A DNA stretch of 64,000 bases from assembly GCA_044070495.1 (NCBI GenBank), contig JBIPSI010000006.1, positions 96,001 to 160,000 of the forward strand. Direction: 5' to 3'. The notes beneath the pieces are model-generated. The model was not told where the DNA came from. It searched no databases and saw only the letters and a program-made list of their open reading frames with translations. How positions within the stretch are numbered: position 1 is the first letter of the stretch; every line of letters begins with the position of its first letter. Shown in pieces: positions 1 through 43,179 of this stretch. The stretch is from Spirulina sp. (GTDB lineage: Bacteria > Cyanobacteriota > Cyanobacteriia > Phormidesmidales > Phormidesmidaceae). Both the position numbers and the translations under genes were made by a program.

Positions 1-13
1 GAAAGCTTGATCT

Positions 14-56: not shown

Positions 57-274
57 ACAAATGGAATGTACCCTCACAGCCTATCTGGTTAGAACCCATT
101 CTATAAAAATTGTCTAAAACTTAGAAGAGCCGTGATTTACTGCAAAGCGATTATTTAGCGACTGCACAAAATGTTTATCTATCCTAAAGTTTGCTCTGTT
201 CTCAAGGTTTCTCTGTTCTCAGAACAGTCGCTGTATGACTATACCTCTAAGGTATCTCTCGGAGTAATCTAGCC

Positions 275-1327: not shown

Positions 1328-1377
1328 AAAAACGTTCAGTTTATTATTTTTCATAGCCCGAATAAGGTTGATAAAAT

Positions 1378-3465: not shown

Positions 3466-3715
3466 CGCTAACCTACTTACCATGAATTGCTGATTCAATT
3501 GTGGGTTTATATTGCCTTACAAAAAACTAAAATAATGCTCTGAGTTCACTCTTTTTTATAAAATAAAACAATTTACTAAAGTGTGGAATAGGATTGGCGC
3601 TAGTTAAGTCTTGAAAGTAAGCCAAAAAACTATGCTTAGTTAGACTATTTTTTCTTTAGCTATGCCGAGGTTTTAATCATGATAACAATTGCTGTAGAGG
3701 GAGGCGAAAAATTTT

Positions 3716-6151: not shown

Positions 6152-6160
6152 CGCAAAGAT

Positions 6161-7285: not shown

Positions 7286-7299
7286 AGTTATCCAGACCC

Positions 7300-7590
7300 A
7301 TCGGCATTGAGACTAGCTATCGCATCAAAAATCAGGCCCGCATCCGCTCGACCACCAAGAATCCCGTGCTACGGCTGCTCTACGTCGCTCTAGCCTTTAT
7401 CTTGGTGAATCTCTGGGTGTACCTGCTGTGGCAGACCGTCAGCGTGACCCGACGAGGGGGGCGACGAGTCTTTCAAGAACGTTTCCCGCTCAAAACCATG
7501 CTCTCCTTCATCCGCCAGGGTGTTGAGCGACATTTTCCCCTTGTCCGGGCTGTATATCTACCTATGACAGCATAAGTTTGTGATCTACTG
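7300..7590 (+). mobile_element. Truncated IS remnant: C-terminus of a probable ISH3-family (IS4-like DDE) transposase plus right end
   Basis: GIETSYR..NQARIRSTTKNPVLRLLY..NLW resembles the catalytic-Glu region of ISH3-type transposases; candidate terminal TGTGATCTACTG at 7579-7590; N-terminal part absent. Confidence 0.7.
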
Positions 7591-26771: not shown

Positions 26772-29153
26772 ATGCATCTACTGGCCCTGCTAAAAAGTCA
26801 CTCTTTTTCTTTATCTTTTCTAGCGCTACTTTTAAATAGCGTTACCAGCCCGATTTTCTTTCCTAGTATTGAAACCTTGGCTGCGGAGCAAAGCGACTAC
26901 TCAGTAGCGCAAAATATCTCAAAAAAGTTTACCTATTTTAACAATAAAGAAGCACTCTCATCGCTTCCAGATTCCCCTCCTAGCTTATCCACTAACTCCT
27001 TTCTTGGAACTAACTTTTTTACCCCTTACCAAGTCGAGATTAGGGAAAATTTGCCAGACAATACCTTCTTTCGCCTACCCACCCACCTACAGCTACTCAA
27101 CGCACCTGAAGGTTATATCCCTGAAGATGCTGCCTTGCAGATTGTTCCTAATCTGAGGGGGGATGGCTTGATGGTCAGCCTCAGACTATGTTCTACCACT
27201 ACGCCCGCAGAAAACTGCGTCATAGGTCACTTTTCTACCCAGCCCCTATCCTCTAGCTCCGCTCAGGCGGATTTAGCCGCCCATCAGTCCATCGGTTATC
27301 CCATCACCCTAGCCCCCGGCATCCAGGCTCATTTCCGAGAATATCGCGATGGCCCCATTGCCTATGCGTCCTTGATGTGGGAACAGGATGGGCAATTTTA
27401 TCGTATCCAATTTCCTGCTGCCGAGCGACAAAATATGCTCTACATGGCATTGGAAATGATCAATAACGAACCCCTCTATCCCTCTGGTTCTGATTCCAGT
27501 TCCATAGCACTAAGGAATGGAGAAGTCAGGCCAGAACCAACCATTGAAATTATCTCCTCAGCGTCTAGTTTGCCCACTGAGACTGTGACGGACTCATCCA
27601 CTGAATCCATCAACCGAGACAGCCTTTATATCTCGGAGTCTAGCATATTTAGTGACGAAGAAATGCGCGGCTGGTTGGCGCAAATTCAGACGTTAAATCA
27701 GAACGCTCCAATTACTGAACTTCGGGATCGCATTACCCAGGAATATATTAATCGTGGCTACATTACCTCAACAGTAAATATTATAGATCAAGACTATCTT
27801 CCCCCCGAATTTGACAATGGAATAGGAATCGTCGAGGGCTTTGTCTCTGATATTTGCGTTATGGAAAGCCAAGACGATGAATGCTCTAGCGACTTCGCTG
27901 CCTACATTCGTTCTCGATTAGATCTAGTCGGTGGGCCGCCACTCAACCTAGATCGCCTCGAAGAAAAGCTACGTCTACTACGGCTAGATCCCCTATTTAG
28001 CAATATAGAAGCCACCCTCAGACCAACAACCGATGAACTCGTTCGCGAGCAGGGTGGAATTGACCTAGTAGTTCGAGTTACGCCAGCCCAACCATTTATT
28101 TATAACGCAAGTATCAATAACGATTCTGCCCCCAGTATTGGCGCAGAGCAATTTGAACTGGGCTTCACCTACCTCAATCCTGGGGGATTTGGGGATTCTT
28201 TCTCAGCCAACTATGCCCATTCCTTTGCGGGTGGACTAGATTACTTTGAAACCGTTTATCAAGTACCTCTTAGCCCAACGGACACAACGTTGCGGTTATC
28301 TGGAGCTTGGATTGGTACTAACGTCGTTGAAGAACCCTTTAACCAACTAGGCGTTTCTGGTAATACGAATCGCTACGCTGTCTGGTTACGACAACCCTTA
28401 ATTAGAACGCCCCAGGAAGAATTGGGTCTTTCCCTTGGGTTTACTCGCACTGCTGGACAAACATTTTTGTTTGATCGTCTGCCTACACCCTTTGGTTTTG
28501 GCCCGGATGCCAATGGTTTTAGCAGTACCAGCGTTATCAGCTTTGCCCAGGACTATGTTTTTCGAGAACCCGATGGTGCTTGGGCCTTTACCTCACAATT
28601 TAACCTAGGTACCAGGCTCTTTAATGCTACGGAAAACCCTGCTCCTATCCCCGATGGGCAGTTTTTTAGTTGGCAGGGGCTGGCCCAACGGGTACAACGT
28701 ATTGGCTTAGATCACTTACTGATCGCAACTTTTAATGTGCAACTTACGCCCCAATCACTTCTACCCTCCGAAAGCTTTACCATCGGCGGCGTTAACTCTG
28801 TGCGTGGCTATCGCCAAGGGGCACGATCCGGTGACAATGGCCTACGGTTTTCTCTGGAAGATCGCATCACAGTTCAGCGAGATGGAGCGGGACGACCTGT
28901 TTTTATTCTCACGCCTTTTCTTGATCTCGGTTCTGTTTGGAATCATCCTACTAATCCCAACGTGATTACAGGGCAGTCTTTTTTAATGGGCAGTGGCCTA
29001 GGGATGATTTTGCAAAATATTGAAGGGCTAGAAGGTGTTAGCTTTCGATTAAACTACGGCATTCCCATTATTAATATGAGTGATCGGGGCAACAATCTCC
29101 AAGATTCTGGCTTCTATTTCGGTGTTGACTACAATTCCGCTCCTAATCAGTGA
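26772..29153 (+). CDS. ShlB/FhaC/HecB-family TpsB outer-membrane transporter with long N-terminal extension
   Basis: POTRA-like ITQEYINRGYITS, LEEKLRLLRLDPLF, IGGVNSVRGY loop-6 motif, NNLQDSGFYF C-terminus. Confidence 0.9.
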   Translation: MHLLALLKSHSFSLSFLALLLNSVTSPIFFPSIETLAAEQSDYSVAQNISKKFTYFNNKEALSSLPDSPPSLSTNSFLGTNFFTPYQVEIRENLPDNTFFRLPTHLQLLNAPEGYIPEDAALQIVPNLRGDGLMVSLRLCSTTTPAENCVIGHFSTQPLSSSSAQADLAAHQSIGYPITLAPGIQAHFREYRDGPIAYASLMWEQDGQFYRIQFPAAERQNMLYMALEMINNEPLYPSGSDSSSIALRNGEVRPEPTIEIISSASSLPTETVTDSSTESINRDSLYISESSIFSDEEMRGWLAQIQTLNQNAPITELRDRITQEYINRGYITSTVNIIDQDYLPPEFDNGIGIVEGFVSDICVMESQDDECSSDFAAYIRSRLDLVGGPPLNLDRLEEKLRLLRLDPLFSNIEATLRPTTDELVREQGGIDLVVRVTPAQPFIYNASINNDSAPSIGAEQFELGFTYLNPGGFGDSFSANYAHSFAGGLDYFETVYQVPLSPTDTTLRLSGAWIGTNVVEEPFNQLGVSGNTNRYAVWLRQPLIRTPQEELGLSLGFTRTAGQTFLFDRLPTPFGFGPDANGFSSTSVISFAQDYVFREPDGAWAFTSQFNLGTRLFNATENPAPIPDGQFFSWQGLAQRVQRIGLDHLLIATFNVQLTPQSLLPSESFTIGGVNSVRGYRQGARSGDNGLRFSLEDRITVQRDGAGRPVFILTPFLDLGSVWNHPTNPNVITGQSFLMGSGLGMILQNIEGLEGVSFRLNYGIPIINMSDRGNNLQDSGFYFGVDYNSAPNQ

Positions 29154-32100
29154 GGGCAACTATGTCAGGTGCTTTTTCTGCCACCAAAATTTCGCCATCA
29201 GTTTTCCTAAGCACAGCCCTAGGACTGGCCATAGCATGGATAACCTTACCCACAAAGTCTGTACAGGCGCAACCTATTGTCCCCACACCAAACGGAACAG
29301 GAACCGAAGTAATTCTTAATAACAATCAATGGGATATTTACGGTGGATCGCTCTCTTCGGACCAGATCAATCTCTTCCATCAGTTTCAACAGTTCGGCCT
29401 TACGGAAGGACAAATTGCTAACTTTTTAGCTAACCCCAATCTTCGCAACATTATCTCTACAGTAGATGGCGGCAATCCCTCCCTTATCAATGGTTTGTTG
29501 CAGGTGACAGGGGGCAATCCAAACCTATTTTTGATGAACCCCTCTGGCATTATTTTTGGCCCCAATGCCCAACTGAATGTGCCCGCTAGTTTTAGCGCCA
29601 TCACCGCTGACGGTATTCAGTTTGGCGACCGCTGGCTTAATGCCGTTGGCCCCAACGATTACTCGGCCCTCACGGGCGACCCCACCGCCTTTCGCTTCAG
29701 CAGCGATTTTACCGGGGCAATTGTGAACGCCGGAAACCTGCAAGTCAACCCTGGCGCAGCTCTCGCGCTGATGGGCGGCACTGTCATCAACACCGGACAA
29801 CTGACGGCCCCCCAAGGCCAAATTTTGATCACCGCTGTCCCCGGCGAAAGCCTAGTGCGACTGGCCCTCCCCGGCTACATCCTCAACCTAGAGGTGGAAG
29901 TGCCCCTCACCGAGGGCGACACGCCCCAAACCTGGCAACTGCCCATCACCGCCCTACCCACCCTGCTCACCCAAGGGCTAACCCCAGAACTGCTGGGCTT
30001 GGCGATCAATTCGGCGGGTGAGGTGCAGTTGGCCGATGGCACTCCCATCCCCAACGCGCCCGGTACGGCGATGGTTTCCGGCGGGGTGGATGTCTCTGGC
30101 AACCAGGGCGGCACGGCGGCGGTGCTTGGGGATCGCATTGGCCTGGGGGGTGCCCAAATCGATGCCAGCGGTACCCAAGGCGACGGTGGCCAAATCCTTG
30201 TGGGCGGAGAGTTTCAGGGTAATGGCCCCCTGCCCAATGCCGAACGCACCTATGTGGATGCCAACACCACCCTCAACGCCGACGCTGGTTCCATCGGAAA
30301 TGGCGGCAGAATCATCGTCTGGGCCGACGAAGCCACGGGGGTTTATGGCGATATTACGGCCCGTGGGGGACAACTCTCTGGCGATGGTGGCTTTGCTGAG
30401 GTTTCAGGTAGGGATTACTTGCAGTTTGATGGCACGGCTGATTTATCAAGTGTGAATGGTGAGATAGGAACCCTACTGCTTGATCCAACTACTATCACTA
30501 TAAGCAATGCTGTCGGTACAACACCGGGAGTTCCTTCTACTTTTCCCAACATTCTTTTAAGTAATTTTTCCGGGCAAGATATCACTATTAATCAGACAGT
30601 TCTAGAAAATGCTGCATCAACTAGTCGAATAATCTTGCAAGCAGAGCAAGGAATTATAATAGGTGATCTGAATGCAGTACTTAGGAATCCCAACGATCCC
30701 AGCAGTAGTATTCCGACACTAACCTTGAGTAATGGAGCAACACTTCTAGTCGCAAATGGCCTAATTGAGATTTTAAATCAAAATGCTCGAATTCTTGTTC
30801 ATAACGGTGATTTGGATATTCAATCACCAATTATTGCCAGTGGAAATATAGATATTCAATCACCGATTATTACTAATGGAGGCGATCTAAATATCACAGC
30901 AGGAAGTATTGCCACTGGAGAGATAGTTACCAATAATCCATTTGGTGATGCTGGCGAAGTTAATCTAACGGCTACTCAAGGAGACATAACCACTAACATT
31001 AGAGCAATAGTTAGAAATACCAATCCAACTATTGAGGGCGACGGTGGAAACATAACTCTAATAGCACTTAACGGTGATATTACAGTCAACAATAACCTTG
31101 TCTCATTTTCGGCAAATGGAGATGGTGGAGATATATATGTTGAAGCAGGTGGAAACATCACAATCGTTTGTGGTCAATCAGCGGATTACTGTGTTGAGAG
31201 TTTTGGAGGAGGAATCCCTAACGTGCCTCCAAGAGGAGATAGTGGAGATATACGTTTTATTAGTCGAGAAGGTTCTATCTTAATTGAAAACCCTCCTGCA
31301 GCTATTCCAGGAAATACCGCTATCAATGCAGGAAACAGCATATTTAATGCTGGATCTATTACTGTCGAAGCTGCTGGAGATATAAGGATTGGAGGAGGGA
31401 TCTTTGCTCATGATGTTCAATTGAATTCTAGCGTTCTAGGATTGACAAGTGAATTTAAAATAAATAGTGATTTGGGTTCTCAGTCTGTGCCAGGGAATGT
31501 CAATATTAGTGGCAGAGTAAATGGATCTGAGATGATAGATCAGCAGGGACGTATTACTGTTGCTAATCCAGGCTTGACCATTGATTCTGATCGAGGCACT
31601 ATTAACCTTGGCGATTCAATAGGTTCAACAATTCCTATTGGAAATCTCACTATTTCTGGCCAGCAAGCGACTGTCTCAGGAAATATTCGGACAGCTAACA
31701 GTCCTATTATTTTCAATTCGCCCGTAACTTTAAGCAGTAATTCTCTCCTGACCTTCGATTCGGGAACAGCGACGATCACACTCAATGGCTTAAATGCTGG
31801 AAGCACGCCTTTAACCTTAATTGCCGATGACTTTAACTTCTCTGGAACCCTTCAGGGAAGTAGCACTCTTACCATTCAACCCTCGACGTTGAGCCGTGGA
31901 ATTATCCTGGGCAGTACAGTCACATCAAATTTAAGCCCAGCCGAAATAGCCACATTGCAAGGATTTAGCAATGTCACCATTGGTGGCGGCAGTGGCGACA
32001 TTACTGTGAACGCCCCCGTCACGTTGAATACCCCAACCCAACTGATTACCACGGGCAATATCACCGACACCGGGGGCATTACTAGCAATAGTGGCAACAT

Positions 32101-34993
32101 TGCTCTCAACGGCAACACCATCAACACCAATACCATTAACACCGCCAACGGCGGCATCAACGTTACCGCTACGGGCGCAGTCATCGCCAACACCATCACC
32201 ACCAACGGCGGCGGCATCGCCATCAGCGGCAACACCGTAATTGCCAACACCCTAACCACTACAGGCGGTCTCAGCGTCAGCACAGATGGCGACATTGCCG
32301 TTACCAACGCCACCGCAACGGGCGGCGGGGTAGACCTCCGTGGCCGTAGCGGCAGCATCCAAGCCAATACCCTCTCGGCTACTGGGGGATCTGTCGTTGT
32401 TAATGGGGCGGGTAGTATCACCACCACCACTGCCAGCGCCATCGGTGGCAACGTCGCCCTTACCAGCAGCACAGGCACCGTCCAAGCTAATGACCTCTCG
32501 GCCACCGGGGGCGGCATTGATGTCACAGCTCCAGGGGGCATCGTTGTACCCAACGCCACCGCCGATGGCATTGTCGCCCTTCGCAGCGGGGGTGGCACCG
32601 TTCAAACCAGCAACGTTGTCACCAACGGCGGCGCAGTTACCCTCAGTGCCCAAACCAACCTAGGCGTGGATAACGTCACCACCAACGGCGGCAGTATCAA
32701 CCTCAGAAGCACTACCGACACCATCACCGTCAACAACATCTATTCTGCCTCCGGTACCGCCGCTGGAGGAGCCATCACCATCACCAACCCCAACACCATC
32801 AACGCCTCTGCCATCAATGCCTCTGGGGCTACCACTGGGGGTGCTATCACCCTCCGTGGCGGAAGCACCCCCACCGAAAGCACCCCCACCGGAACCGTCA
32901 CGACCGGAAACCTCACCAGCACAGGCACCGCCAGCGGCGGCAACATCACTGCCCTTGCCCGCGACACCATCACCACTGGCGCAATCGATACCTCCGGGGC
33001 CACCGCTAGCGGCAACATCACCCTAAGCGGCGGCAACACGGCCACCGGAACTGTCACGACCGGGAATCTCACCAGCACAGGCACCACCAGCGGTGGCGAC
33101 ATCACCGTCCTCGCCCGCGACACCATCACCACTGGCGAAATCAATACTAGCGCCACCGTCGGCAATGGCGGCAACGTCCTCCTCGACCCCCTGGGGGATG
33201 TGCAAGTCACCTTTATTAATGCCCAAGGCGGCACCAATGGCGCAGGTGGTAACGTCGAGATTAGATCCATCGACCGCTTCTTCCGGGCCACCGGAGCCTT
33301 CCCCGACCGAAACGGCATTTTAGCCAGCATCTCTGCCGCAGGCGGTGGCGGCGAAGGCACCATTACCATCACCCACAATGGCGGTGCAGCCAATGTATTA
33401 GTGCCCTTTATTATCTCCACCGCATCCGATAACGGCACCGTTGGCGCACTCACCACTGGGGCTAATAATATTATTTTCCCCGGCTCATTTCTGGGTCCCT
33501 ACACCCAGGGCAACATTGATATTATTACTAGTCCCCAAGCCACCCAATTGGCTGATGCTAGCTTGCCCGATACCCGCCCTGAAGAAATTCAACCCGCAGA
33601 AACCGATAATCAACCCTTTTGGTTGGATGAGTATTTTACTCGCCGCACAGAAGACTACCTAGGCATTAATGGCGAAACTAGGGTGAAAAGCCTGGAGGAA
33701 ATTCAGGGTGACTTACGCAGAGTAGAAGAGTCCACAAATATTCGGCCTGCACTGATCTATGTTCTCTTTGAGCCAAGGGAATCTCTGATTACTATCCCTG
33801 AGACTGGCCTTTTTAATCCCGATAAACTAATCAACCGAGGAGCACTATCTCGTTTTGAGCCTCTGCCAAGTGATAGATTACAGATGATTCTGGTTACGGC
33901 CTATGGAGAACCTATTCTTTATCGTCCACCAGAAAATACTGATGAGATAGACGCTAACGACATAACCAGAGAAAACGCTCCCAGAGAAGTCTTTGATTTT
34001 GAAAGTGCGGTACTAGAAGATCTAAGAAATTACGAAGAAAGGCGCGTTACAGATGAGTCTCTCTACTTACATCATGCTCAGGTACTATACCAGTGGTTAG
34101 TCGCTCCTTTAGAGCAAGACTTAGAAAGTCAGGGAATTCAGAATCTTGTGTTTATTATGGATGATGGACTCCGCACAACCCCTCTAGCCGTTCTTTCTGC
34201 TATGCACAATGGTCGTCAGTTCATTATTGAGAACTACAGTGTTGGATTAATGCCAAGCTTTAGCCTAACAAGTTCTCGCCACATCAATCTGCGGAGTTCA
34301 AGAATTCTGGCTATGGGAATGAGTGACTTTAGTCAATATGAGGAATTAGATAATTTAGAAGCTGTTGATGAGGAAGTTAGACTAATTAATCAATCTCTAT
34401 GGGGAGGATCTGACTCTAATATTGATCGTTTTTTGGGTAGCAACTTTACACCAGAAAATCTGATCTTACAACGAAGAGATCAGTCTTCTAATATTGTACA
34501 TCTAGCTACCCATGCCAAAGTGGAAATAGGAGCACCTGAAAATTCATTTCTTGTTTTCTATGATGGAAAACTTTTCTTCGACCAACTTGACAGACTCAGG
34601 TTAGACAGCCCACCAATAGAATTGCTTGTTCTTAGCGCGTGTCAAGCGGCACTAAGTCCAGATGATGAAAGCGCTGAACTTGGATTTGCAGGTTTATCGG
34701 TACAAGCAGGAGTTAATACGGTTTTGGCCAGCTTTTGGGAAGTACCTGACTTCCCAACGCTAGGGCTAATGACGGAATTCTATAATCAGTTACAAACTTC
34801 TCCTATTAGATCTGAAGCACTGAGGCAAGCTCAGTTAGCAATGATAAATCGGGAGGTCTTTTTCCAGAATGATCGCCTGTTTTGGTCATCTAACTCTGAA
34901 GCTATTCCTGCACTGAGAGGAGTAACAGATACATTATGGCTGTCTCATCCTGGTTACTGGTCAAGCTTTACAATGATTGGCAACCCATGGTAA
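29150..34993 (+). CDS. Filamentous-hemagglutinin (TpsA) protein with C-terminal CHAT protease domain
   Basis: NLFHQFQQFGL, LMNPSGIIFG TPS motif, GGFAEVSG, long G/T/N/I beta-helix repeats, CHAT motifs VHLATHA, LLVLSACQ, ASFWEV, HPGYWSSFTMIGNPW; start GTG 29150 or ATG 29162. Confidence 0.92.
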   Translation: MRATMSGAFSATKISPSVFLSTALGLAIAWITLPTKSVQAQPIVPTPNGTGTEVILNNNQWDIYGGSLSSDQINLFHQFQQFGLTEGQIANFLANPNLRNIISTVDGGNPSLINGLLQVTGGNPNLFLMNPSGIIFGPNAQLNVPASFSAITADGIQFGDRWLNAVGPNDYSALTGDPTAFRFSSDFTGAIVNAGNLQVNPGAALALMGGTVINTGQLTAPQGQILITAVPGESLVRLALPGYILNLEVEVPLTEGDTPQTWQLPITALPTLLTQGLTPELLGLAINSAGEVQLADGTPIPNAPGTAMVSGGVDVSGNQGGTAAVLGDRIGLGGAQIDASGTQGDGGQILVGGEFQGNGPLPNAERTYVDANTTLNADAGSIGNGGRIIVWADEATGVYGDITARGGQLSGDGGFAEVSGRDYLQFDGTADLSSVNGEIGTLLLDPTTITISNAVGTTPGVPSTFPNILLSNFSGQDITINQTVLENAASTSRIILQAEQGIIIGDLNAVLRNPNDPSSSIPTLTLSNGATLLVANGLIEILNQNARILVHNGDLDIQSPIIASGNIDIQSPIITNGGDLNITAGSIATGEIVTNNPFGDAGEVNLTATQGDITTNIRAIVRNTNPTIEGDGGNITLIALNGDITVNNNLVSFSANGDGGDIYVEAGGNITIVCGQSADYCVESFGGGIPNVPPRGDSGDIRFISREGSILIENPPAAIPGNTAINAGNSIFNAGSITVEAAGDIRIGGGIFAHDVQLNSSVLGLTSEFKINSDLGSQSVPGNVNISGRVNGSEMIDQQGRITVANPGLTIDSDRGTINLGDSIGSTIPIGNLTISGQQATVSGNIRTANSPIIFNSPVTLSSNSLLTFDSGTATITLNGLNAGSTPLTLIADDFNFSGTLQGSSTLTIQPSTLSRGIILGSTVTSNLSPAEIATLQGFSNVTIGGGSGDITVNAPVTLNTPTQLITTGNITDTGGITSNSGNIALNGNTINTNTINTANGGINVTATGAVIANTITTNGGGIAISGNTVIANTLTTTGGLSVSTDGDIAVTNATATGGGVDLRGRSGSIQANTLSATGGSVVVNGAGSITTTTASAIGGNVALTSSTGTVQANDLSATGGGIDVTAPGGIVVPNATADGIVALRSGGGTVQTSNVVTNGGAVTLSAQTNLGVDNVTTNGGSINLRSTTDTITVNNIYSASGTAAGGAITITNPNTINASAINASGATTGGAITLRGGSTPTESTPTGTVTTGNLTSTGTASGGNITALARDTITTGAIDTSGATASGNITLSGGNTATGTVTTGNLTSTGTTSGGDITVLARDTITTGEINTSATVGNGGNVLLDPLGDVQVTFINAQGGTNGAGGNVEIRSIDRFFRATGAFPDRNGILASISAAGGGGEGTITITHNGGAANVLVPFIISTASDNGTVGALTTGANNIIFPGSFLGPYTQGNIDIITSPQATQLADASLPDTRPEEIQPAETDNQPFWLDEYFTRRTEDYLGINGETRVKSLEEIQGDLRRVEESTNIRPALIYVLFEPRESLITIPETGLFNPDKLINRGALSRFEPLPSDRLQMILVTAYGEPILYRPPENTDEIDANDITRENAPREVFDFESAVLEDLRNYEERRVTDESLYLHHAQVLYQWLVAPLEQDLESQGIQNLVFIMDDGLRTTPLAVLSAMHNGRQFIIENYSVGLMPSFSLTSSRHINLRSSRILAMGMSDFSQYEELDNLEAVDEEVRLINQSLWGGSDSNIDRFLGSNFTPENLILQRRDQSSNIVHLATHAKVEIGAPENSFLVFYDGKLFFDQLDRLRLDSPPIELLVLSACQAALSPDDESAELGFAGLSVQAGVNTVLASFWEVPDFPTLGLMTEFYNQLQTSPIRSEALRQAQLAMINREVFFQNDRLFWSSNSEAIPALRGVTDTLWLSHPGYWSSFTMIGNPW

Positions 34994-35009
34994 ATAAATC
35001 ACGAATTTT

Positions 35010-35726
35010 TTAATCAGAATTATTGGAAAGTGTTTCTGGAATTGCTCCAAGACCTTCTTCTCTAAGTAGGTTAACCCACATATCAAAATCATTGTTAGAG
35101 GCATAGACTAGCGCGTCATACCACGCTCTTTGCTCATTCATTGGCACAGTTCTAGTTACTGTAGATCTGGCAACAATAGTATTTGTAGAAGGTCTTTCAG
35201 TTGAACCACCGCAATATATTCTGAAGATGACGTTATGTTTTTGTCCAGGGCTTAATGAACGAGCTGTTTGTTCTGTCAAGGTAACAGAAATGACTGAGTT
35301 TCCTGGAACGTTGTCGAATTTCTGGGTAAAAATCTCTTCACGTCTTTCTGTCAGATCTCTAGGAACTGTTTCCAGGGTAAAGACGGCCTGAGATTGCGGT
35401 GTAATATCTACAGGCGTGTAAATCAAAAAAGTTGGGAAGGCTTCGTGAGTGATGGCTCTGGAGTCATCGCTAGGTCTAAGAATCATTAGCGCTGGCAAGT
35501 TTGCGTATGTGTCCTGCCGATCACACTGCCCTCCTCTTCGACCTAATGGTATGAGCGTTGGTCGTCCTGAGGAAGTGGCACTGGATGACGAGCTATTTCC
35601 TCCACCTCCATTTTTCAAGCTAAATTCTACGGTACTAGCAGCGTAACTGCGTAAAACTGGAACAATTAAAAAGGCTGATATCATAGATGTCAGCATCATA
35701 GTACTCAAAGTCATTTTCCTAAACAT
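35010..35726 (-). CDS. DUF928-family secreted protein (divergent)
   Basis: N-terminal hydrophobic signal, RRGGQC, PTFLIYTP, second Cys (IYC), WYDAL, W..LL...GL. Confidence 0.75.
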   Translation of the reverse strand: MFRKMTLSTMMLTSMISAFLIVPVLRSYAASTVEFSLKNGGGGNSSSSSATSSGRPTLIPLGRRGGQCDRQDTYANLPALMILRPSDDSRAITHEAFPTFLIYTPVDITPQSQAVFTLETVPRDLTERREEIFTQKFDNVPGNSVISVTLTEQTARSLSPGQKHNVIFRIYCGGSTERPSTNTIVARSTVTRTVPMNEQRAWYDALVYASNNDFDMWVNLLREEGLGAIPETLSNNSD

Positions 35727-37851
35727 GAGTAAGTCTCCATCTTGACAAAACTTTTTTTGACCAAAGCATTGAAAAGCTCGAAATTCCAAGACTGATAATT
35801 ACAAGAGGTAGAAAAGTAAAACACCAATCTAAGATTACAGCAGCTAAAACAATAATATAAAGTGCTATCAATCCTGAACAAGAAATGATAAAACCGTTTT
35901 TTGGGGTTGACCTTATACATAACAATAAGCCATATATGACTCCCCAGCTACTTACTAACGCCATATCTTGTTTAGGTTCTAAATATCTAATAGTTCTGTT
36001 TTTGCCTAGAGTCAAATCCAGCAGTTGACTGATCTTGTGGGCATGGATAATAACTCCTGACTTGGTTCCATAGGGTGTTCTAGCAATATCATCATTTCTT
36101 GCCTTGCTGCCAATCAAGACTATTTTATTGCTGAAAATCTCCATTAGTTGAGCAGGGTCTTCTTCTAATATAGACTGAAGTGAATAAACCGTAGCTGCAT
36201 CTTCATAAGGTCTATAGTTGATCATAACTTGAACAGTTTCATTTGTGAAATCTGCTTGCAATTGCTCTTGTCTAAAATTTTGATATAGAAAATGATGCGG
36301 CTTTAACTTGAAACTCTGAATTGAACCTGCAACAAGCTCTTCATGATTATCTTGAAGTCGAGGCTCATGAAAATGAATGTATTTGCTTAAAACTTTGTAG
36401 GCAAATGACCATTGAGTAAGGCACTCATCATTTCTCTCAGGCCAGAAAACTAGATGGCGACGTATAGATCTATTCTCATTGTCAGCTATAGCCTCCGCAA
36501 AGCCCAAGTTATCTGTATATATACCACTGCTAGAGTATCCTTGATAACCATCATTCTGAGAGTTGTCTTTATAGCAAATGCCAATTATGTTATTTTTATC
36601 GCGAATATCAAGAATATTTCTATGGGTAATATCAATGCCAATAACAGCAGGATTGGCTTTAAGAATTAGATCTAGCAGATCTCTTAAGGACTCGTCTGAT
36701 AAGCTGTCTCCCTCCTTTAAGTCTTCATATCTTTTGCTTAAAAAAATAACATCATCATTGTTGATCTCAATAATTGAAATCCTGGAATCTGGACTATACC
36801 AATTTATACGAGATCTTATTGATCCATGTTGAGAAGTTATCCTCGCTAAGTTGCTACGCATCCATAGCGTATGATCGAAAAACTGTAGTTCTAACGGCTG
36901 TAAAACACCCAGAAAACGTAGGCCAATAACAACCGACGTTACGCCTACGCTGATAGGAAGGCTTCTCTTGACATACTCACCCCAGCCATAAAGCCGTGGT
37001 TTTCGGTAATACTGGTTAGCAATATCATCTAAGGCTTGCTGGATTACCTCTGCACTGGCTGGTCGGCCTTCGGCCTTCTCACTCTGCATTTTATCCAAAA
37101 GATCTCTCAATCTAGGATTTAATCGAATTGTTTTAGTTGAAGGCTTATCCAAAAAACTCTTGAGAGTTTTGCCGAGCATACAGAAATCGGAATGTGGGAG
37201 CAGTTTACCATCAAATTGCTCGGCAGAACTGTACTCAGGCGTGATGGATATGTCATCAACACCATCATCATCGAAGATATCTGAAGTGCTAATTTTTAAT
37301 AGATAAGCAGGATCAATTCTCTGGGCGCTACCAAAATCGATAAGCTTCAGCTCTCCTTTTTGGTTGATCATGATATTTTTAGGTTTGATATCTCCATGCA
37401 AAATACTTCTGCTGTGGATATGACCTAAAATATCAGCAAGTTGAGTTAGCCAGTCTAAAATTCGGGCTTCAGAGTCAATACCATTCTCGTCTACCCATTG
37501 ATCTAGGGTTTTCCCAGGAATTTTTTCTACCACTAGATGGGGAATATCAGACAGGGTAAAGTCATCCAAGTAGCGAACAATGCCGGGATGATTAAGTTCT
37601 TTCAGGCATTGAATCTCGATTTCTAGAGATTTTTTTAGCAGATCGCGATTTGGGCTATCTGGATTGATGGTCTTTAGGATTCGCTTTGGCCCTAGGGTTG
37701 GCCAGCGTCGCAGCCATCGTGAGATCCTTGTGTCTTCTACAAAATATAGGCGGCTATCCGGCTGTCCTTGCAGCACCTGACTAGGATCGTCTGATGCCAC
37801 ACCAATCAAGCGATAGCCATTAATGATTGATGCTTGCTTCGTATTTTTCAT
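35719..37851 (-). CDS. Ser/Thr protein kinase fused to CHASE2 sensor domain
   Basis: ILK, HPGIVRY, HGDIKPKN, LIDFG; TM; GVLQPLEL.FFD, PAVIGIDI, KIVLIG, GVIIHAHKISQLL; three C-terminal TMs. Confidence 0.88.
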   Translation of the reverse strand: MKNTKQASIINGYRLIGVASDDPSQVLQGQPDSRLYFVEDTRISRWLRRWPTLGPKRILKTINPDSPNRDLLKKSLEIEIQCLKELNHPGIVRYLDDFTLSDIPHLVVEKIPGKTLDQWVDENGIDSEARILDWLTQLADILGHIHSRSILHGDIKPKNIMINQKGELKLIDFGSAQRIDPAYLLKISTSDIFDDDGVDDISITPEYSSAEQFDGKLLPHSDFCMLGKTLKSFLDKPSTKTIRLNPRLRDLLDKMQSEKAEGRPASAEVIQQALDDIANQYYRKPRLYGWGEYVKRSLPISVGVTSVVIGLRFLGVLQPLELQFFDHTLWMRSNLARITSQHGSIRSRINWYSPDSRISIIEINNDDVIFLSKRYEDLKEGDSLSDESLRDLLDLILKANPAVIGIDITHRNILDIRDKNNIIGICYKDNSQNDGYQGYSSSGIYTDNLGFAEAIADNENRSIRRHLVFWPERNDECLTQWSFAYKVLSKYIHFHEPRLQDNHEELVAGSIQSFKLKPHHFLYQNFRQEQLQADFTNETVQVMINYRPYEDAATVYSLQSILEEDPAQLMEIFSNKIVLIGSKARNDDIARTPYGTKSGVIIHAHKISQLLDLTLGKNRTIRYLEPKQDMALVSSWGVIYGLLLCIRSTPKNGFIISCSGLIALYIIVLAAVILDWCFTFLPLVIISLGISSFSMLWSKKVLSRWRLTHV

Positions 37852-37887
37852 GTTAGAACTTTGGCTAGGTAGGCTATTGAACTAAAG

Positions 37888-39318
37888 TTAGTTGTCTAAA
37901 TATCTGGTAATAAATCTTTGAATTAGAGGGGTTAACTCATATTGAATTGATTTGCCATCATTGCGATGAATGACTTTTATGAATTTGGCTTCCTCTAGAT
38001 CGGGAAGAATTCCCATGAGTTCTCCGCGAGAGACAACGGCTTGCATCAATCGCTCTAGATCGTCTAAGGGTAAGGGCTTGGCTCTCTCTGCCATTTGGAG
38101 GCAAATCTGTTGTTCAGAATTGTCTAGCCCCTGCCACTGTTCTCTTACCAAGTCCATCATTTCTGACGTGCGGAAAATAGTATGGCCACGCTCTTGATTA
38201 AATATTGCTAGATCACCCTTATAGTTTTTCTGAATAGCACCGATTGCAAACTGAATGAAGCTGGGATTGCCAAAGTAGGCTTCATGAATATATTTGTAAT
38301 CTAATGGGTTAGAAGAGACAATATTTTGACTGTTAAGTAATTCTTGAACGGCCTCTAGGGCAAGCCCTTTAAGAGACAGTCCAGCAATGCCATAGGAACG
38401 GTGAACTCCGTTTCTCATGAAGCGAAGATTCTCTATCTGTTTACTGCCTACCATTAATAGACAGCCTTGATGTATCTCCGTTTGCATAGGATCAAACAGT
38501 TGTGAGTATTCATCGTAGATAGCCCATGATGTTTCTGGATTACGCTGGGGTGAAACGCCATCGAGCACCATTAGCCACGGCGATTGCCCTAGATGCTGAA
38601 GCAGTTGTCTAAAGGCTGCTGGGGGAGTGAGGTTAGACTGATCTATATGGGGTGCCCAGCGCTGAACGATTTGGTTCAGGAAGGATTCTAGGGTAGGGGC
38701 ATTCTCCATCTGAAACCAAAAGATTCGATATCCTGCTTCTGCTTCTAGGGTTTGGGCTAGCTGGCAGGCTAGGGTGGTGGTACCCACCGAGGGTTGAAGC
38801 CCCCGAATCACAAGAATTTGCCGTTGTTCCTCGATAATCCGGTGCTTGAGTTTGGCGATTTCTTCGTGGCGGCCAAAGCAAGGGGCATCCTTCTCAACAT
38901 ATCCCCAGTAGGACAGTGGCACTGATGCTAGCTTGCTAGATCCTCCTACATCCTCTGGGCGATAGCCCATCTCTTTAATGAGGTTACGAACACAGCGATC
39001 ACGAAAACGGGGAGCATTCTCAGCCAAGCTCCACGTAGGATCTTGGCTGTAACGCTGATAGATCCACTCTATATAGAGATAGACATACTCATTCAGGCAG
39101 CCCGTCACGGCCTTTGACGTTACATCAGAGGCCTCCGCGATTTCCTGCAAGGTGCAACCGACGAGCACACCTCTCAAATACCGCCATTCCTTGGTGGCTA
39201 GGACACATGGCTTACCGTTGATCTCAGACTTAGCGTCTGTCAGATCCTTGTAAAGGCAACTGTCCTCGCCCCAAGCCGCAATCTTTCTGTCAAACTCGGT
39301 GTCTCCTAATTCGACCAT
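37888..39318 (-). CDS. NB-ARC/STAND-like ATPase with N-terminal HTH-like domain and no C-terminal repeats
   Basis: LRGVLVGCTLQEIAE HTH-like segment, FGRHEEI, RGLQPSVGTTTLA (degenerate Walker A), LMVLDGV, LKGL, GNP, winged-helix-like tail. Confidence 0.75.
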   Translation of the reverse strand: MVELGDTEFDRKIAAWGEDSCLYKDLTDAKSEINGKPCVLATKEWRYLRGVLVGCTLQEIAEASDVTSKAVTGCLNEYVYLYIEWIYQRYSQDPTWSLAENAPRFRDRCVRNLIKEMGYRPEDVGGSSKLASVPLSYWGYVEKDAPCFGRHEEIAKLKHRIIEEQRQILVIRGLQPSVGTTTLACQLAQTLEAEAGYRIFWFQMENAPTLESFLNQIVQRWAPHIDQSNLTPPAAFRQLLQHLGQSPWLMVLDGVSPQRNPETSWAIYDEYSQLFDPMQTEIHQGCLLMVGSKQIENLRFMRNGVHRSYGIAGLSLKGLALEAVQELLNSQNIVSSNPLDYKYIHEAYFGNPSFIQFAIGAIQKNYKGDLAIFNQERGHTIFRTSEMMDLVREQWQGLDNSEQQICLQMAERAKPLPLDDLERLMQAVVSRGELMGILPDLEEAKFIKVIHRNDGKSIQYELTPLIQRFITRYLDN

Positions 39319-39416
39319 CTCGCCCTGATTGTAAGCTTTATTACGCTTGGCTTAAGAGTATACACTGACTCTCTATCTAGCGCTACCCCGAATCGTCCTG
39401 TTTTGACATCAACCTA

Positions 39417-39471
39417 GCCTGCAGGATGGAAAAGGATGGAAAGTGTTGAAAAATCATCCTGTCCTGTAGGC
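39417..39471. promoter_or_regulatory. Operator-like direct and inverted repeat array in divergent promoter
   Basis: AGGATGGAAA x2 (39423-39442), CAGGATG/CATCCTG, GCCTGCAGGA/TCCTGTAGGC. Confidence 0.45.
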
Positions 39472-39501
39472 ATTAACGTCTGATAAGCCATCTCTTGCAG
39501 A

Positions 39502-39744
39502 ATGCCAATGTCAGCAATCAGCGAGGTGCAGGCGATGGACTTTCCCTTTGTAACCCATTGGTTTTCTTCCCCAGTTATGGCAACGGTAGTTGCAGAACTT
39601 AAGCCGAAGTACCAAGTGAAATGCTGGGCTACCTATTGGCGTGCTGAACTGATTTATCCCTTTCAGGACAGTGTTTTGTCCATCGATAGCACGGTGGTTG
39701 TGATTGGCCGACGGGGGCTAACCCTTTTAGTGTGTCCATCCTAG
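39502..39744 (+). CDS. NfeD-like small OB-fold protein (start uncertain)
   Basis: QVKCWATYWRAE..V.VIGRRGLTLLV resembles cyanobacterial stand-alone NfeD C-terminal domains. Confidence 0.65.
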   Translation: MPMSAISEVQAMDFPFVTHWFSSPVMATVVAELKPKYQVKCWATYWRAELIYPFQDSVLSIDSTVVVIGRRGLTLLVCPS

Positions 39745-39867
39745 GCAAGTCGTTAGCTATCGAGAGTTAACCCATGCATTTATAGCGAGCCCAATGGGTG
39801 GGGCTACTCCGAAGCAAATAAGCTTTTGATATCGAAGTAAGATTTTATTCTTGAGGTCGATAATCTC

Positions 39868-40206
39868 ATGCGGTACCAGCGCAATTTTAAGCGAATTGAA
39901 TTTTCCATTTTTGTCGGTATTCCCTTGGGATTTTTTCTGATTGGAAGTTCAGTCTATGCAGGCGGTATTGGGGATGACTTCTCTTCTAATTCTGCTTCGC
40001 TTTCAACCAATGATGAGGTTTTCTCTCATAGTGAGTTGGCATATCCAGAAGAGGGCAACCAAAATTCTGAAAGGTCTTCCACTCGGCTAACACCAGATTG
40101 GCAAAACTGGAGTGAACCCTATGTTGATGGCGACTCTATTTGCCGCGAGAGCAATGGTGACTTAGCCTGTCTCACGCCTACTTCTGCTGAGTATCTGCGC
40201 TGGTAG
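39868..40206 (+). CDS. Hypothetical small secreted protein
   Basis: GAGG RBS, signal-peptide-like N-terminus ending VYA, C-terminal Cys pair (CRESNGDLAC). Confidence 0.6.
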   Translation: MRYQRNFKRIEFSIFVGIPLGFFLIGSSVYAGGIGDDFSSNSASLSTNDEVFSHSELAYPEEGNQNSERSSTRLTPDWQNWSEPYVDGDSICRESNGDLACLTPTSAEYLRW

Positions 40207-40457
40207 TGACGTTAGTAGATGCGTGATACTCGATTTCGAGATTCCCTATTTTTTGCTAGGAAGCATTCTCTAAAATGACCTGTCGCTACGGCGTCTAAGA
40301 GGTGCTTTTCCTCAAGTAAGGCTTTCTTTTATCACGAGGTATTCATTATGCCCTAGAAAAGGCCATGAATCTTTCATGGCGAAATTCAATATGCTCCCAA
40401 TCTTCAGGTTCGTTTGCAAGTTTGTTTTTCAATCGTCGAGTCTACTAAGGAACTACT

Positions 40458-41414
40458 ATGAGCACATCATCTACCAAGCTTCGACTATTGCCAAAAATGG
40501 GTTTAATTGGGCTGTCCCTTTTTACTGGGTTTAGCCTATCTGTAGACTACCTAAAATTGGCGATTCAGCCCACGCCGCCAGCCTATGCTCAATCAGCTAC
40601 TTGCAGTAGTGTACGAGCTGTTACCTTCTCTGGTCGTACCAGTGGCTCAATGACGGGTAAGCCAAACATCCGTACCAACCTGCGGGCAAACCCCACAACC
40701 AGCGCTGGGGTTTTGGCCACCATTCCACCCAACACCATGCTGACCTTCTCTGGCTGGACTTATGGCGCTAGTGTGACGGATATTTGGACGGGCCGCGCCG
40801 ATCAACGCTGGTTTCGTGTTACCTACCAAGGGCGAACAGGTTGGGTTGCTAGTGGCGTTATTTATGGCAACCCTCCCAACTCAACACCGACCTGTTTAGC
40901 TACAGGAGGGGGTCAACCGGGGCAGATGCACCGCAACCCAGAAGTATTTTATCGGTGGGCTAAGAGCCAAGTTGGTATTTCTCGCTTGGATAGGTCCGAT
41001 CTTCGAGGGCAATGCGTAACCTTGATTGCACGCTACATTCAGGAGGTTTATCTGACTGGAAGCCAGCGCACGGCAGCAATTGCTTTTGGACATGGAAAGG
41101 ATACGGCACGAGTTGTTGCAAGTAGGTGGCCTAATTTCTTCACTCCAGTTACCAATCAAGGCTTACCTCGGCGTGGAGCCATCATTTCTTTCCCTGATAT
41201 TGGAATCGTGGGTGGTGTGCGCTATGGCCATGTCGCTATTGTGATGGAAGCTCGTCAACTTTCCAACGGACAACGACAGGTTCGCATCTTGGACTCAAAT
41301 GGCGATAGCCGAGGCCCAAATAGTAATGTCAGAGAATATACTTATTGGGTTAATATTCCTGATGGCACTGCACAGAGGTATGGTCGAGGAATTTACTGGA
41401 CTAATCCCAGATAG
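40458..41414 (+). CDS. SH3b + CHAP domain peptidoglycan hydrolase
   Basis: Signal peptide, NLRANPTTSA..WFRV..GWVASG SH3b; GQCVTL (Cys), YGHVAIV (His), ILDSN. Confidence 0.85.
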   Translation: MSTSSTKLRLLPKMGLIGLSLFTGFSLSVDYLKLAIQPTPPAYAQSATCSSVRAVTFSGRTSGSMTGKPNIRTNLRANPTTSAGVLATIPPNTMLTFSGWTYGASVTDIWTGRADQRWFRVTYQGRTGWVASGVIYGNPPNSTPTCLATGGGQPGQMHRNPEVFYRWAKSQVGISRLDRSDLRGQCVTLIARYIQEVYLTGSQRTAAIAFGHGKDTARVVASRWPNFFTPVTNQGLPRRGAIISFPDIGIVGGVRYGHVAIVMEARQLSNGQRQVRILDSNGDSRGPNSNVREYTYWVNIPDGTAQRYGRGIYWTNPR

Positions 41415-41502: not shown

Positions 41503-43179
41503 ATGAACATTTCGCTTCAAAAGCAGCTTCAACAACGCCAGATCAACCTTGAGAGTGCGCTGCAACTGATCTCGAATGGCTTGAAGGATTTCTGTGTTGA
41601 CTGGATTGATCTCAACTTGTGTGAGCGCTTTTTTCGGCAGTGTAAGAACGCCAAGGGATTGCCGCCTGTGATTCCGCTGCTGCTGTGGCAGAGTTGTTAC
41701 TACCTGGGTTCGCCCAGTGAGTGGAGTCAGGAGCTTATTGACACCTTGGGGCAAAACCTGGATACGGAGATTCGGGTGTTTCCGATTTCTGAGGAAAGCT
41801 ATCGCACCTGGTTTAAGCATTACAACTCCGAGCAGCATCGCACCAGCGCGGAGATTCAGCGGGATCCGTTGACGGGGGAAATTCTGCCGGAGAATATCCA
41901 GGAAACGGCGCAACTGCATTTGTCCCAGGTGGATGACCAGATCGAGCGGATTAAGACGCTGATTTTGAGTGCGTTGCGCAACCGGGCCAGTGATATTCAC
42001 CTAGAGCCGTTGGTGGATGGGCTGCGGGTGCGGTATCGCATTGACGGCATTTTGCGCCAGGTGACGACGTTTCCACCGGATGTGGGGCGGCGGCTGGTGG
42101 TGGCCTTGAAGGTGATGTCGCAGATGGACATTGCCGATAGTCGGCGGCCCCAGGATGGGCGGATTGGCGAGAAGTATCAGCTTGGGCAGCAGGATTATGG
42201 TCTGGATTTGCGGGTGAACACGCTGCCCTGTGTGAGCACGGTGAAGGGACGGGCCAGCGAAAAGGCGGTGCTGCGGCTGCTGAAGCAGACCAATTCCTTT
42301 GCGGCCATTGAGGAAGTGGGGTTTACGGCGGCGACCTATCCGATTTACCGAGATTGGCTGGCCCAGCCCCAGGGAATGATTATTTTGACCGGGCCAACGG
42401 GGTCGGGCAAAACCAGTACGCTCTACGCCAGTTTGAAGGAAATTGCGACGGAATCGGTGAACGTGGTGACGGTGGAAGACCCGGTGGAGTACGTGCTTCC
42501 CGGCATTACCCAAACCCAGGTGAACGAGGCGGCGGGGATGACCTTTGCGGCGGGGCTGCGATCCATTTTGCGGCAGGATCCCGACATTATTATGATTGGC
42601 GAAATCCGCGATAGCGAAACCGCTGAAACGGCGGTGCGGGCGGCATTGACCGGGCACCTGGTGTTTACCACCCTGCACACCAACGATGCGGTGGGGGCGA
42701 TTCCTCGCCTCAAGGATATTGGGCCAGATCCGGGTTTGATTAGCGATGCGCTGCTGGGGGTGGTGGCACAGCGGCTGGTGCGGCGAATTTGCCCCCACTG
42801 TGCCGAACCCCATCCCCTAAGTGCCGACGAGTTGGCGGTGCTGGGGCTAACGCGGGAGGATGTCGTGTCCCGCAAGACCAAAAAGGGGCGCGGCTGTAGC
42901 CAGTGCTTTGAGTCGGGCTATGCGGGGCGGGAGGCGATTATTGAGCTTTTAAATGTGGATAGCCGCGTCCGGCAGATTATCTACGAAGGGTCGATGACGC
43001 AGCTCAACCACTATTTGCAGAGCATCCACTATCAATCCTTTCGGCAGGCGGCGATTGACAAGGTATTGACGGGGGTGACCACTGTGGAGGAGGTGAAGCG
43101 GGTGCTGCCTTCGAGTGCGCTGATGGTGCGGCCTCTGCCCTCCAGCCATCGTGAGGAGGTGAATTTAAAGGCGATCTAG
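41503..43179 (+). CDS. GspE/PulE/PilB-family secretion ATPase
   Basis: ASDIHLEP, RYRIDG, PQDGRI, GPTGSGKTSTL, LRQDPDIIMIGEIRD, TLHTND, CPHC..CSQC. Confidence 0.95.
   Translation: MNISLQKQLQQRQINLESALQLISNGLKDFCVDWIDLNLCERFFRQCKNAKGLPPVIPLLLWQSCYYLGSPSEWSQELIDTLGQNLDTEIRVFPISEESYRTWFKHYNSEQHRTSAEIQRDPLTGEILPENIQETAQLHLSQVDDQIERIKTLILSALRNRASDIHLEPLVDGLRVRYRIDGILRQVTTFPPDVGRRLVVALKVMSQMDIADSRRPQDGRIGEKYQLGQQDYGLDLRVNTLPCVSTVKGRASEKAVLRLLKQTNSFAAIEEVGFTAATYPIYRDWLAQPQGMIILTGPTGSGKTSTLYASLKEIATESVNVVTVEDPVEYVLPGITQTQVNEAAGMTFAAGLRSILRQDPDIIMIGEIRDSETAETAVRAALTGHLVFTTLHTNDAVGAIPRLKDIGPDPGLISDALLGVVAQRLVRRICPHCAEPHPLSADELAVLGLTREDVVSRKTKKGRGCSQCFESGYAGREAIIELLNVDSRVRQIIYEGSMTQLNHYLQSIHYQSFRQAAIDKVLTGVTTVEEVKRVLPSSALMVRPLPSSHREEVNLKAI

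Follow-up and report, generated by a model that had tools for sequence, protein, structure and literature searches.

What does a CHASE2 receptor sense, and through which partners? To our knowledge, a ligand of CHASE2 receptors is known in few bacteria, and we know of no tested function for DUF928 proteins, for exoproteins that join a two-partner secretion (TPS) domain to a CHAT domain, or for short STAND proteins with a helix-turn-helix (HTH) head. All of these are encoded together in an island at positions 26772-41414 of a 64,000-nucleotide stretch of DNA (the window, G000:C6:96001-160000) from a 5.3-Mb cyanobacterial assembly (G000, the window's own genome). We see about an even chance that the island is a composite locus for envelope signalling, assembled from three cassettes that are each conserved (TpsB/TpsA-CHAT, CHASE2/DUF928 and HTH-STAND/kinase), of which the second would feed the third because the kinase is here fused to CHASE2. 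The locus joins three conserved, unstudied gene sets and would open a testable route to the signal of CHASE2 receptors: within 15 kb it offers DUF928 as a candidate partner for CHASE2, an exported caspase-like protease, carried on a secreted filament, as a candidate input, and a kinase acting on a STAND protein as a candidate output.

Open reading frames (ORFs) and Pfam matches place eight genes between a metallophosphoesterase gene and a gene for a PilB-type ATPase:

26772-29153, plus strand: TpsB outer-membrane transporter, 793 amino acids (ShlB E 1e-26, Omp85 E 7.5e-9, POTRA_2 E 7e-6)
29150-34993, plus strand: TpsA-CHAT exoprotein, 1947 amino acids when read from GTG (TPS E 1.6e-34, CHAT E 2.5e-59)
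35010-35789, probable start 35726 (238 amino acids), minus strand: DUF928 (PF06051) predicted periplasmic protein (Pfam E 1.5e-12)
35719-37851, minus strand: Pkinase-CHASE2 receptor Ser/Thr kinase, 710 amino acids (Pkinase E 3e-26, CHASE2 E 6e-33)
37888-39318, minus strand: short STAND (NB-ARC-type) protein, 476 amino acids (sub-threshold nSTAND5/ATPase_2 matches only; remote homology)
39502-39744, plus strand: NfeD-like protein of the OB-fold type, 80 amino acids (PF01957 E 7e-5, below cut-off)
39868-40206, plus strand: predicted exported protein, 112 amino acids (hydrophobic segment; no Pfam match)
40458-41414, plus strand: SH3_3-CHAP protein, 318 amino acids (SH3_3 E 7e-9, CHAP E 2.4e-6)

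The minus-strand operon runs from STAND through Pkinase-CHASE2 to DUF928 and converges with TpsB/TpsA-CHAT, while the NfeD-like, 112-residue and SH3_3-CHAP genes diverge from it. The original prediction, made from the letters of the window before any database search, had described this gene set, its order, its low G+C and a tightly spaced convergent operon, and ORFs, Pfam matches and per-gene G+C bear the description out. The gap between the STAND and kinase genes is 36 nt, a DUF928 start at 35726 would give an 8-nt overlap with the kinase stop, and 16 nt separate the convergent stop codons of TpsA and DUF928. No terminator-like site was found in this 16-nt gap or within 300 nt around it (0.3 expected).

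The CHASE2-DUF928 pair and its exported neighbours

The analysis supports a tight link between CHASE2 and DUF928. Profile searches of this genome gave 4 DUF928, 11 CHASE2 and 23 CHAT matches, and every DUF928 gene (4/4) adjoins a CHASE2 gene. One of the four loci, on contig C6, is the window's island. On C16 the genes code for a sigma-r4 protein, DUF1822, a caspase-like-CHASE2 protein, DUF928 and a TPS protein; on C1 for CHASE2, DUF928 and a POTRA-TPR-CHAT protein; and on C18 for CHASE2-HATPase and DUF928, with a TPS protein, a CHASE2-cyclase and a TPR-CHAT protein 7 kb off. A PF06051 search of 121 genomes from the phylum found DUF928 in 39 (G000 included), all of the same class. For 33 of the 38 other genomes we took the best DUF928 match with about 10 kb on each side; G043, G123, G129, G133 and G135, which had no listed coordinates, were left out, and for G034 the fourth match by E-value was used, the best one lying at a contig end. 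The loci were annotated with hidden Markov models (HMMs) from Pfam-delimited seeds, which agreed with Pfam on nine whole loci (L039-L047). In 24 of the 33 loci a CHASE2 gene is the immediate neighbour of DUF928. The outputs carried by these 24 CHASE2 genes vary (14 cyclase, 4 caspase-like, 1 kinase, 5 none recognised), and the CHASE2 domain is therefore the constant partner of DUF928.

The congruence of the two families, which the original prediction had proposed to examine, was found over 29 DUF928/CHASE2 pairs: their distances correlate with a Mantel r of 0.866, equalled in 0 of 5000 permutations, a figure that is inflated by the common ancestry of orthologous pairs. The nearest neighbour is identical in both families for 16 of the 29. 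Complex prediction, proposed at the same time, gave the CHASE2 ectodomain and DUF928 a co-fold score of 0.53 against 0.00 for the best of three controls, with at least 67% of contacts shared between runs and a partner predicted local distance difference test (pLDDT) of at least 73. In calibration, 116 of 157 solved complexes reached the mark, as did 2 of 215 mismatched pairs, and scores at or below 0.60 comprised only 18 of the 157 solved complexes plus both mismatches that passed, so that by the tool's own calibration the co-fold points only weakly to a CHASE2-DUF928 contact.

The window's DUF928 protein scores 48.1 bits against a family cut-off of 26, over profile positions 5-120 of 184, and has a signal-like N-terminus (hydrophobic segment at residues 7-25). 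A disordered stretch holds an invariant arginine, R64, within G-R-R-G-G-Q-C and a near-invariant cysteine, C68 (32-sequence alignment). It is followed in the model by a predicted Ig/FN3-like beta-sandwich and then a C-terminal helical bundle, with a pLDDT of 77-91 over residues 70-175. Foldseek with this model returned generic FN3/Ig sandwiches only, the best at E 4e-4 and with a query TM-score of at most 0.34.

The receptor kinase is arranged as an N-terminal cytoplasmic kinase, a transmembrane segment, a periplasmic CHASE2 domain and C-terminal transmembrane segments. By hydropathy, CHASE2 residues 305-640 lie between transmembrane segments 298-316 and 655-673; more C-terminal segments are visible by eye only. 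A PDB sequence search with the whole kinase-CHASE2 protein gave 1986 matches, of which the best 60 are kinase domains, none covering CHASE2. In an alignment of 21 CHASE2 ectodomains (alignment A4), the invariant columns are mostly Asp (D37, D118, D299) together with the Arg pair R175 and R176, a pattern that suggests a charged pocket or metal site. A second CHASE2 and Pkinase gene of this genome (826 amino acids, G000:C58:261-2741) stands at a contig start, where its neighbours, a possible DUF928 among them, are not visible.

We turn to the secretion pair. TpsB has the POTRA_2 domain and Omp85/ShlB barrel (Pfam) of two-partner (type Vb) secretion transporters, and a signal-like N-terminus with a hydrophobic segment at residues 3-21. 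Its residues 1-300 (window 26772-27670) form a pre-POTRA extension with no Pfam match, Ser/Pro-rich in places; ShlB-type neighbours in other fetched loci are 580-734 amino acids long, against 793 for TpsB. TpsA, beside this co-directional TpsB, combines a hydrophobic segment at residues 14-32 with a TPS domain at residues 54-238, as expected of a type Vb exoprotein, and carries its CHAT domain at residues 1643-1945. The two genes had been described as overlapping by GTGA. The four letters are indeed present at 29150-29153, but TpsA more likely starts at ATG 29162 (1943 amino acids), with a gap of 8 nt between tpsB and tpsA in place of the overlap, because GAGG stands 6 nt upstream of this ATG and the 1943-residue database gene call corresponds to it.

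The window's CHAT domain has the sequence features of a clan CD peptidase, with the family match and with the His residues of HLATHA and the Cys of LSACQ kept. Of the 45 CHAT domains that this genome and the fetched loci supplied, 43 keep the His column and 44 the Cys column; we take these conserved positions to be the catalytic pair of the fold. The linker and CHAT region of TpsA matches 2254 proteins at E <= 1e-10, 1070-3408 amino acids long, and has a match in 47 of 61 genomes of the class at E <= 1e-40. In most of the 120 listed homologues (of the 2254), PF05860 and PF12770 are fused, and identity over the linker and CHAT region is 40-57%, near-identical copies aside; judged by these precomputed Pfam labels, the TPS-CHAT fusion is common. 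An N-terminal hydrophobic segment is present in 9 of 11 CHAT proteins neighbouring DUF928. The CHAT proteases of the DUF928 neighbourhood are thus predicted to be exported, that of the window sitting on a TpsA, and it is therefore topologically possible that CHAT, DUF928 and the CHASE2 ectodomain meet outside the cytoplasm. Contig C35 of this genome has a CHAT-rich region, with ten CHAT matches at about 1500-44600, in which CHAT-like and CHASE2 domains (G000:C35:33312-34451) fall within a single 856-residue frame.

How often do the exported proteins accompany the sensor pair? Among the 33 DUF928 loci, CHAT is found in 9, TPS in 8, ShlB in 4 and any of the three in 13. Seen from the other side, in 20 TPS-CHAT loci (the best linker and CHAT match from each of 20 genomes), one ORF holds both TPS and CHAT in 15 and ShlB is found in 3; CHASE2 lies nearby in 5, DUF928 in 4 and either in 6. 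Each of the four TPS genes in this genome has a CHASE2 gene within 10 kb (counted against the 8 CHASE2 genes that a custom HMM detects in 5.3 Mb), and three of the four have DUF928 within the same distance. The order CHASE2 - DUF928 - TPS/CHAT appears again in the unrelated loci L108, L110, L116, L049, L055 and L062. The linkage of CHAT/TPS to CHASE2-DUF928 is therefore supported as facultative but clear.

We considered whether CHAT might do no more than mature or release the TpsA filament as a peptidase acting in cis, with CHASE2-DUF928 sensing an unrelated envelope or external cue. The available part of PMC3482391 describes autoprocessing by the clan CD domains that occur in polymorphic toxins and in large surface proteins, CHAT is fused to TpsA here as in most of the listed homologues, and CHASE2-DUF928 pairs are mostly without a CHAT gene. 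Cis-processing is hard to reconcile with four loci (L050, L061, L065, L002) because there a separate exported TPR-CHAT protein adjoins DUF928/CHASE2 with no TPS in the locus, and it leaves the recurrent adjacency of CHAT and sensor unexplained. We regard this explanation as unlikely.

Far less probable still is that TpsA-CHAT is a contact-dependent, polymorphic-toxin-like effector, its caspase-like end being the toxin and DUF928 the periplasmic immunity protein. What speaks for such an arrangement is that DUF928 is exported and comes directly after the CHAT end of TpsA, and that Table 1 of Zhang et al. lists the type V secretion system among polymorphic-toxin export routes and Cyanobacteria in the phyletic pattern (PMC3482391, available text); the routes named there for caspase toxins are the type VII secretion system, PVC, TcdB/TcaC and the type II secretion system. 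Against this, DUF928 is convergent to tpsA and belongs to the kinase operon, and elsewhere (L108, L110, L116) it is found upstream of TPS-CHAT and downstream of CHASE2. Moreover, 24 of 33 DUF928 genes are beside CHASE2, and CHAT, TPS and ShlB genes are all missing within about 10 kb at 20 of the 33 loci. The linker and CHAT region, at the identity seen in the listed homologues, is conserved family-wide and not swapped among strains, so that with its convergent downstream gene the locus lacks the form of a polymorphic toxin or contact-dependent inhibition system.

The STAND protein and the neighbouring kinase

The STAND protein had been labelled NB-ARC. Its own Pfam matches are sub-threshold, but it matches P0006 at E 7e-50, and P0006 lies above the NB-ARC and NACHT cut-offs; the label is valid through remote homology only, which extends over the NTPase and helical domains of the STAND family. 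Relatives number 980 at E <= 1e-10 and 2250 at E <= 1e-3, and among 5.8 billion clusters only 4 are near-length close homologues of the 476-residue protein. It has no sensor repeats. Its Walker A motif reads GTT plus a one-residue insertion (GTTT in place of GKT), whereas GK[TS] is found in 146 of 153 aligned sequences; within the subfamily of the window protein, GTT or GAT, again with a one-residue insertion, is found in 5 of 5. This protein is unlikely to be an ATP-driven switch because the Walker A lysine is missing. This is a STAND family with a fixed loss of that residue, and, if it is functional, phosphorylation can drive STAND scaffolds in place of nucleotide exchange.

Two distant loci bear on whether the STAND protein and the kinase belong together. 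In G171 (30% identity, different family), a divergent NfeD-like gene (142 amino acids, E 3e-5) accompanies a STAND gene (462 amino acids) followed by a Pkinase-CHASE2 gene (731 amino acids), and in G332 (27% identity) a GerE-NB-ARC gene (545 amino acids) is followed by a Pkinase-WD40 gene (724 amino acids). A Ser/Thr kinase gene is thus downstream of STAND in both loci, an order that fits the proposal, made from the sequence, that the kinase acts on the HTH-STAND protein; GKT is retained in both STAND proteins. The G332 homologue (L127) has a GerE/LuxR HTH at the matching N-terminal position, and we infer an HTH in the window protein because of it. The possibility that the G171 kinase-CHASE2 contig continues into a DUF928 or TPS-CHAT contig was not borne out, because the partial DUF928 on C256 adjoins a different, 1079-residue CHASE2 gene and because the ORF after the G171 TPS-CHAT gene is without a match.

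The kinase domain retains HGDIKPKN, DFG and SAE, with a probable Lys in RILK. A GxGxxG glycine-rich loop was not found in it, the Pfam match beginning at profile position 29.

The divergent genes follow the cassettes less closely. The protein called NfeD-like in the original prediction scores 23.4 bits against a cut-off of 29.1, so the label falls short by Pfam, but the resemblance recurs in G171, and a gene in the same divergent position codes for 142 amino acids in G171 and 80 in L072. No SPFH/Band 7 match was found among the 11 window proteins scanned with Pfam. The 112-residue protein has a hydrophobic segment at residues 12-30, and the SH3_3-CHAP protein, present in one copy in this genome, is a probable peptidoglycan amidase/endopeptidase by its domains. 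Models of the NfeD-like, 112-residue and SH3-CHAP proteins matched in 0 of the 33 DUF928 loci. The 112-residue and SH3-CHAP genes recur in one close relative only (L072), and the arm of the circuit to which they had been assigned is accordingly not upheld.

A proposed signalling path and its known counterparts

Taking the observed gene content, conserved pairings, exported location of parts and degenerate P-loop as the starting point, we suggest how a composite envelope-signalling locus might work. TpsB would export TpsA, a long beta-helical filament ending in a CHAT protease with its His and Cys. The CHASE2 ectodomain and the periplasmic Ig-like DUF928 would form a receptor and co-receptor (or ligand-presenting) pair, with DUF928 binding the ectodomain, and would read the state of TpsA-CHAT in the envelope, whether its secretion, its release or its proteolytic products. 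This reading would alter the activity of the Ser/Thr kinase, which would work with the short HTH-STAND regulator: it would phosphorylate this nucleotide-independent (P-loop-dead) protein, and the phosphorylated form would adjust how strongly the divergent NfeD-like arm, and possibly the TPS genes, are transcribed.

Several points weigh against the proposal. We infer the binding, the phosphorylation, any cleavage and the choice of target genes, and both the Mantel figure and the co-fold score carry the reservations given above. The kinase may be a poor kinase or a pseudokinase because it has no recognisable glycine-rich loop. In the window STAND protein, the N-terminal 130 residues, helical and taken to hold the HTH, have no Pfam match, and the model is poor (pLDDT 53) and unfit for structure search. 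A STAND homologue at E <= 1e-30 was found in just 2 of 300 other genomes of the class (G171 and G332), and an adjacent STAND and kinase pair in 0 of the 53 loci centred on DUF928 or TPS-CHAT, where one WD40-STAND lies 5.5 kb off and five loci have a kinase; the full combination is rare on both counts. The G171 contig stops 207 nt past kinase-CHASE2, too early to show a DUF928 gene. Finally, since most CHASE2-DUF928 pairs have no CHAT, TPS or ShlB gene close by (none within about 10 kb at 20 of 33 loci), the protease arm would be optional.

The circuit originally envisaged, in which the exported CHAT would process DUF928 or the ectodomain, is partly supported as a whole. Its self-contained character is not borne out by the 0 of 53 loci with an adjacent STAND and kinase pair or by the CHASE2-DUF928 pairs themselves, 14 of 24 having a cyclase output and most having no CHAT nearby. 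A specific form of it, which we hold to be improbable, is that CHASE2 receptors sense extracytoplasmic proteolysis: CHAT would cut or capture the R64 stretch of DUF928, a change at the Asp-rich CHASE2 would drive the kinase, and the kinase would control a nucleotide-independent STAND transcription factor. DUF928 would in this form be a co-receptor or pro-ligand. If true, bacteria would have here the equivalent of a protease-activated receptor connected to a regulator of the apoptosome type.

The proposed composite envelope-signalling locus has likenesses in described systems, for which we draw on the available portions of the papers cited. One related neighbourhood is that of the EACC2-caspase systems with an ECF sigma factor and DUF1822 (Kaur, Iyer, Burroughs, Aravind, eLife 2021; PMC8195603), likewise cyanobacterial and of the conflict/signalling type, where a cytoplasmic effector domain is attached to a CHASE2 ectodomain that has its own transcription factor alongside. 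The window is not such a system: a kinase precedes CHASE2, and there is no Sigma70_r4 or DUF1822 gene, so that a Ser/Thr kinase stands for the EACC2-caspase and HTH-STAND for the ECF sigma factor and DUF1822. DUF928 and TPS partners are unmentioned for those systems in the text available from PMC8195603. The paralogous locus C16 does fit, adding DUF928 and a TPS protein. For the output, Streptomyces AfsK phosphorylates the STAND regulator AfsR (PMC10936776, in part); the genes for this Hanks-type Ser/Thr kinase and its DNA-binding STAND (NOD) target lie close to each other. In AfsR, DNA is bound by a SARP domain, the NOD hydrolyses ATP/GTP and there are TPR repeats, whereas the window protein would have a LuxR/sigma-r4-like head and has neither repeats nor the Walker A lysine; the window kinase differs from AfsK in being a membrane receptor with CHASE2.

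For the input, Pseudomonas aeruginosa has the TpsA adhesin CdrA, which is set free by a periplasmic protease that an inner-membrane receptor holds (PMC6584795, in part). In CdrA/CdrB with LapG/LapD, as would be the case here, the fate of a TpsA is set by a periplasmic cysteine protease under an inner-membrane receptor; CHAT would stand for LapG, and CHASE2/DUF928 with the kinase for the cyclic di-GMP receptor LapD. The Sinorhizobium meliloti CHASE2 cyclases CyaD1/CyaD2/CyaK respond to a protein signal via the outer-membrane beta-barrel NsrA (PMC13001267, available text), and so resemble the proposal in both the kind of signal and the help of an outer-membrane barrel. Their output is a cyclase and not a kinase, and no DUF928 is reported in the available text. 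In polymorphic toxins, caspase-like domains are also described, either in a processing role or as the toxin itself (Zhang et al. 2012, PMC3482391, in part); the Tox-Caspase arrangement shares a clan CD peptidase at the C-terminus of a type V-exported protein, while the window has no variable toxin cassette or same-strand immunity gene and its C-terminal region is conserved. One CHASE2, DUF928 and WD40 cluster is mentioned in a single sentence of the available text of PMC5587647, and our literature search found no paper on the CHASE2-DUF928-CHAT-TPS set.

Composition, flanks and origin of the island

The expected contrast in composition was confirmed. Genes of the island have a G+C of 0.39-0.505 (0.468 in tpsB), those of the flanks 0.57-0.60; a profile in 1-kb steps gives 0.38-0.52 for the island and about 0.58 beyond it, with one exception at 32-33 kb (0.61) that corresponds to the Gly/Thr/Ala-rich repeat region of TpsA. 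The flanks are as follows:

24832-26415, minus strand: metallophosphoesterase (Metallophos, Pfam), left flank
41503-43179, plus strand: T2SSE/PilB-type ATPase (Pfam), right flank

A comparison with sister strains had been suggested along with the G+C scan. In 12 same-genus genomes, only flank segments match at the DNA level, at 71-87% identity and on different contigs; a K-channel flank piece is matched in 10 of the 12, and the island DNA has no match there besides short, weak hits to TPS-type genes. L072, a contig of a close relative's metagenome-assembled genome (best segment 83% identity), repeats the right half of the island. Its flanks look the same by position, with ORFs of 564 and 353 amino acids in the PilB and K-channel places. 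Pfam gave no integrase or transposase among the 11 window proteins scanned, and no tRNA stands at the island borders, the sole tRNA of the window being at 56 kb. A listing of sequencing runs gave no RNA run with a match and one DNA run with a 0.05 share of the sampled words. The region is strain-variable and compositionally foreign.

These features raise the possibility that the island is a mosaic gained by horizontal transfer and contains no circuit, so that only the TpsB-TpsA, CHASE2-DUF928 and STAND-kinase pairs function jointly and the rest is co-transfer in a strain-variable AT-rich region. The low G+C, the confinement of same-genus matches to the flanks and the recurrence of the right half beside apparently the same flanks in one close relative all agree with it, as do the 112-residue and SH3-CHAP genes, found in 0 of 33 DUF928 loci, and the STAND and kinase pair, found in 0 of 53. 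Conversely, no integrase, transposase or tRNA marks the borders, the CHASE2 - DUF928 - TPS/CHAT order is repeated in unrelated loci, and TPS/CHAT adjoin CHASE2-DUF928 far above what gene density would give: the expectation is below 4% per 20-kb window (a rough figure, from 8-11 CHASE2 genes in 5.3 Mb), against CHASE2 at 5 of 20 TPS-CHAT loci and at 4 of 4 TPS genes here. We think a mosaic of this kind rather unlikely.

Three smaller observations concern the surroundings of the island. At L072:8947-11102, kinase-CHASE2 is split into two ORFs (216 and 486 amino acids) by a frameshift or an assembly error. The same genome as the window codes for an aldehyde decarbonylase. A second AT-rich stretch, at window positions 1-7300 (G+C 0.37-0.49), holds genes for a family-2 glycosyltransferase, a PMT_2/DUF7024 membrane glycosyltransferase, a xylose-isomerase-like TIM-barrel protein and an FAD oxidoreductase together with two ORFs without a family match, and is probably a surface-glycan island.

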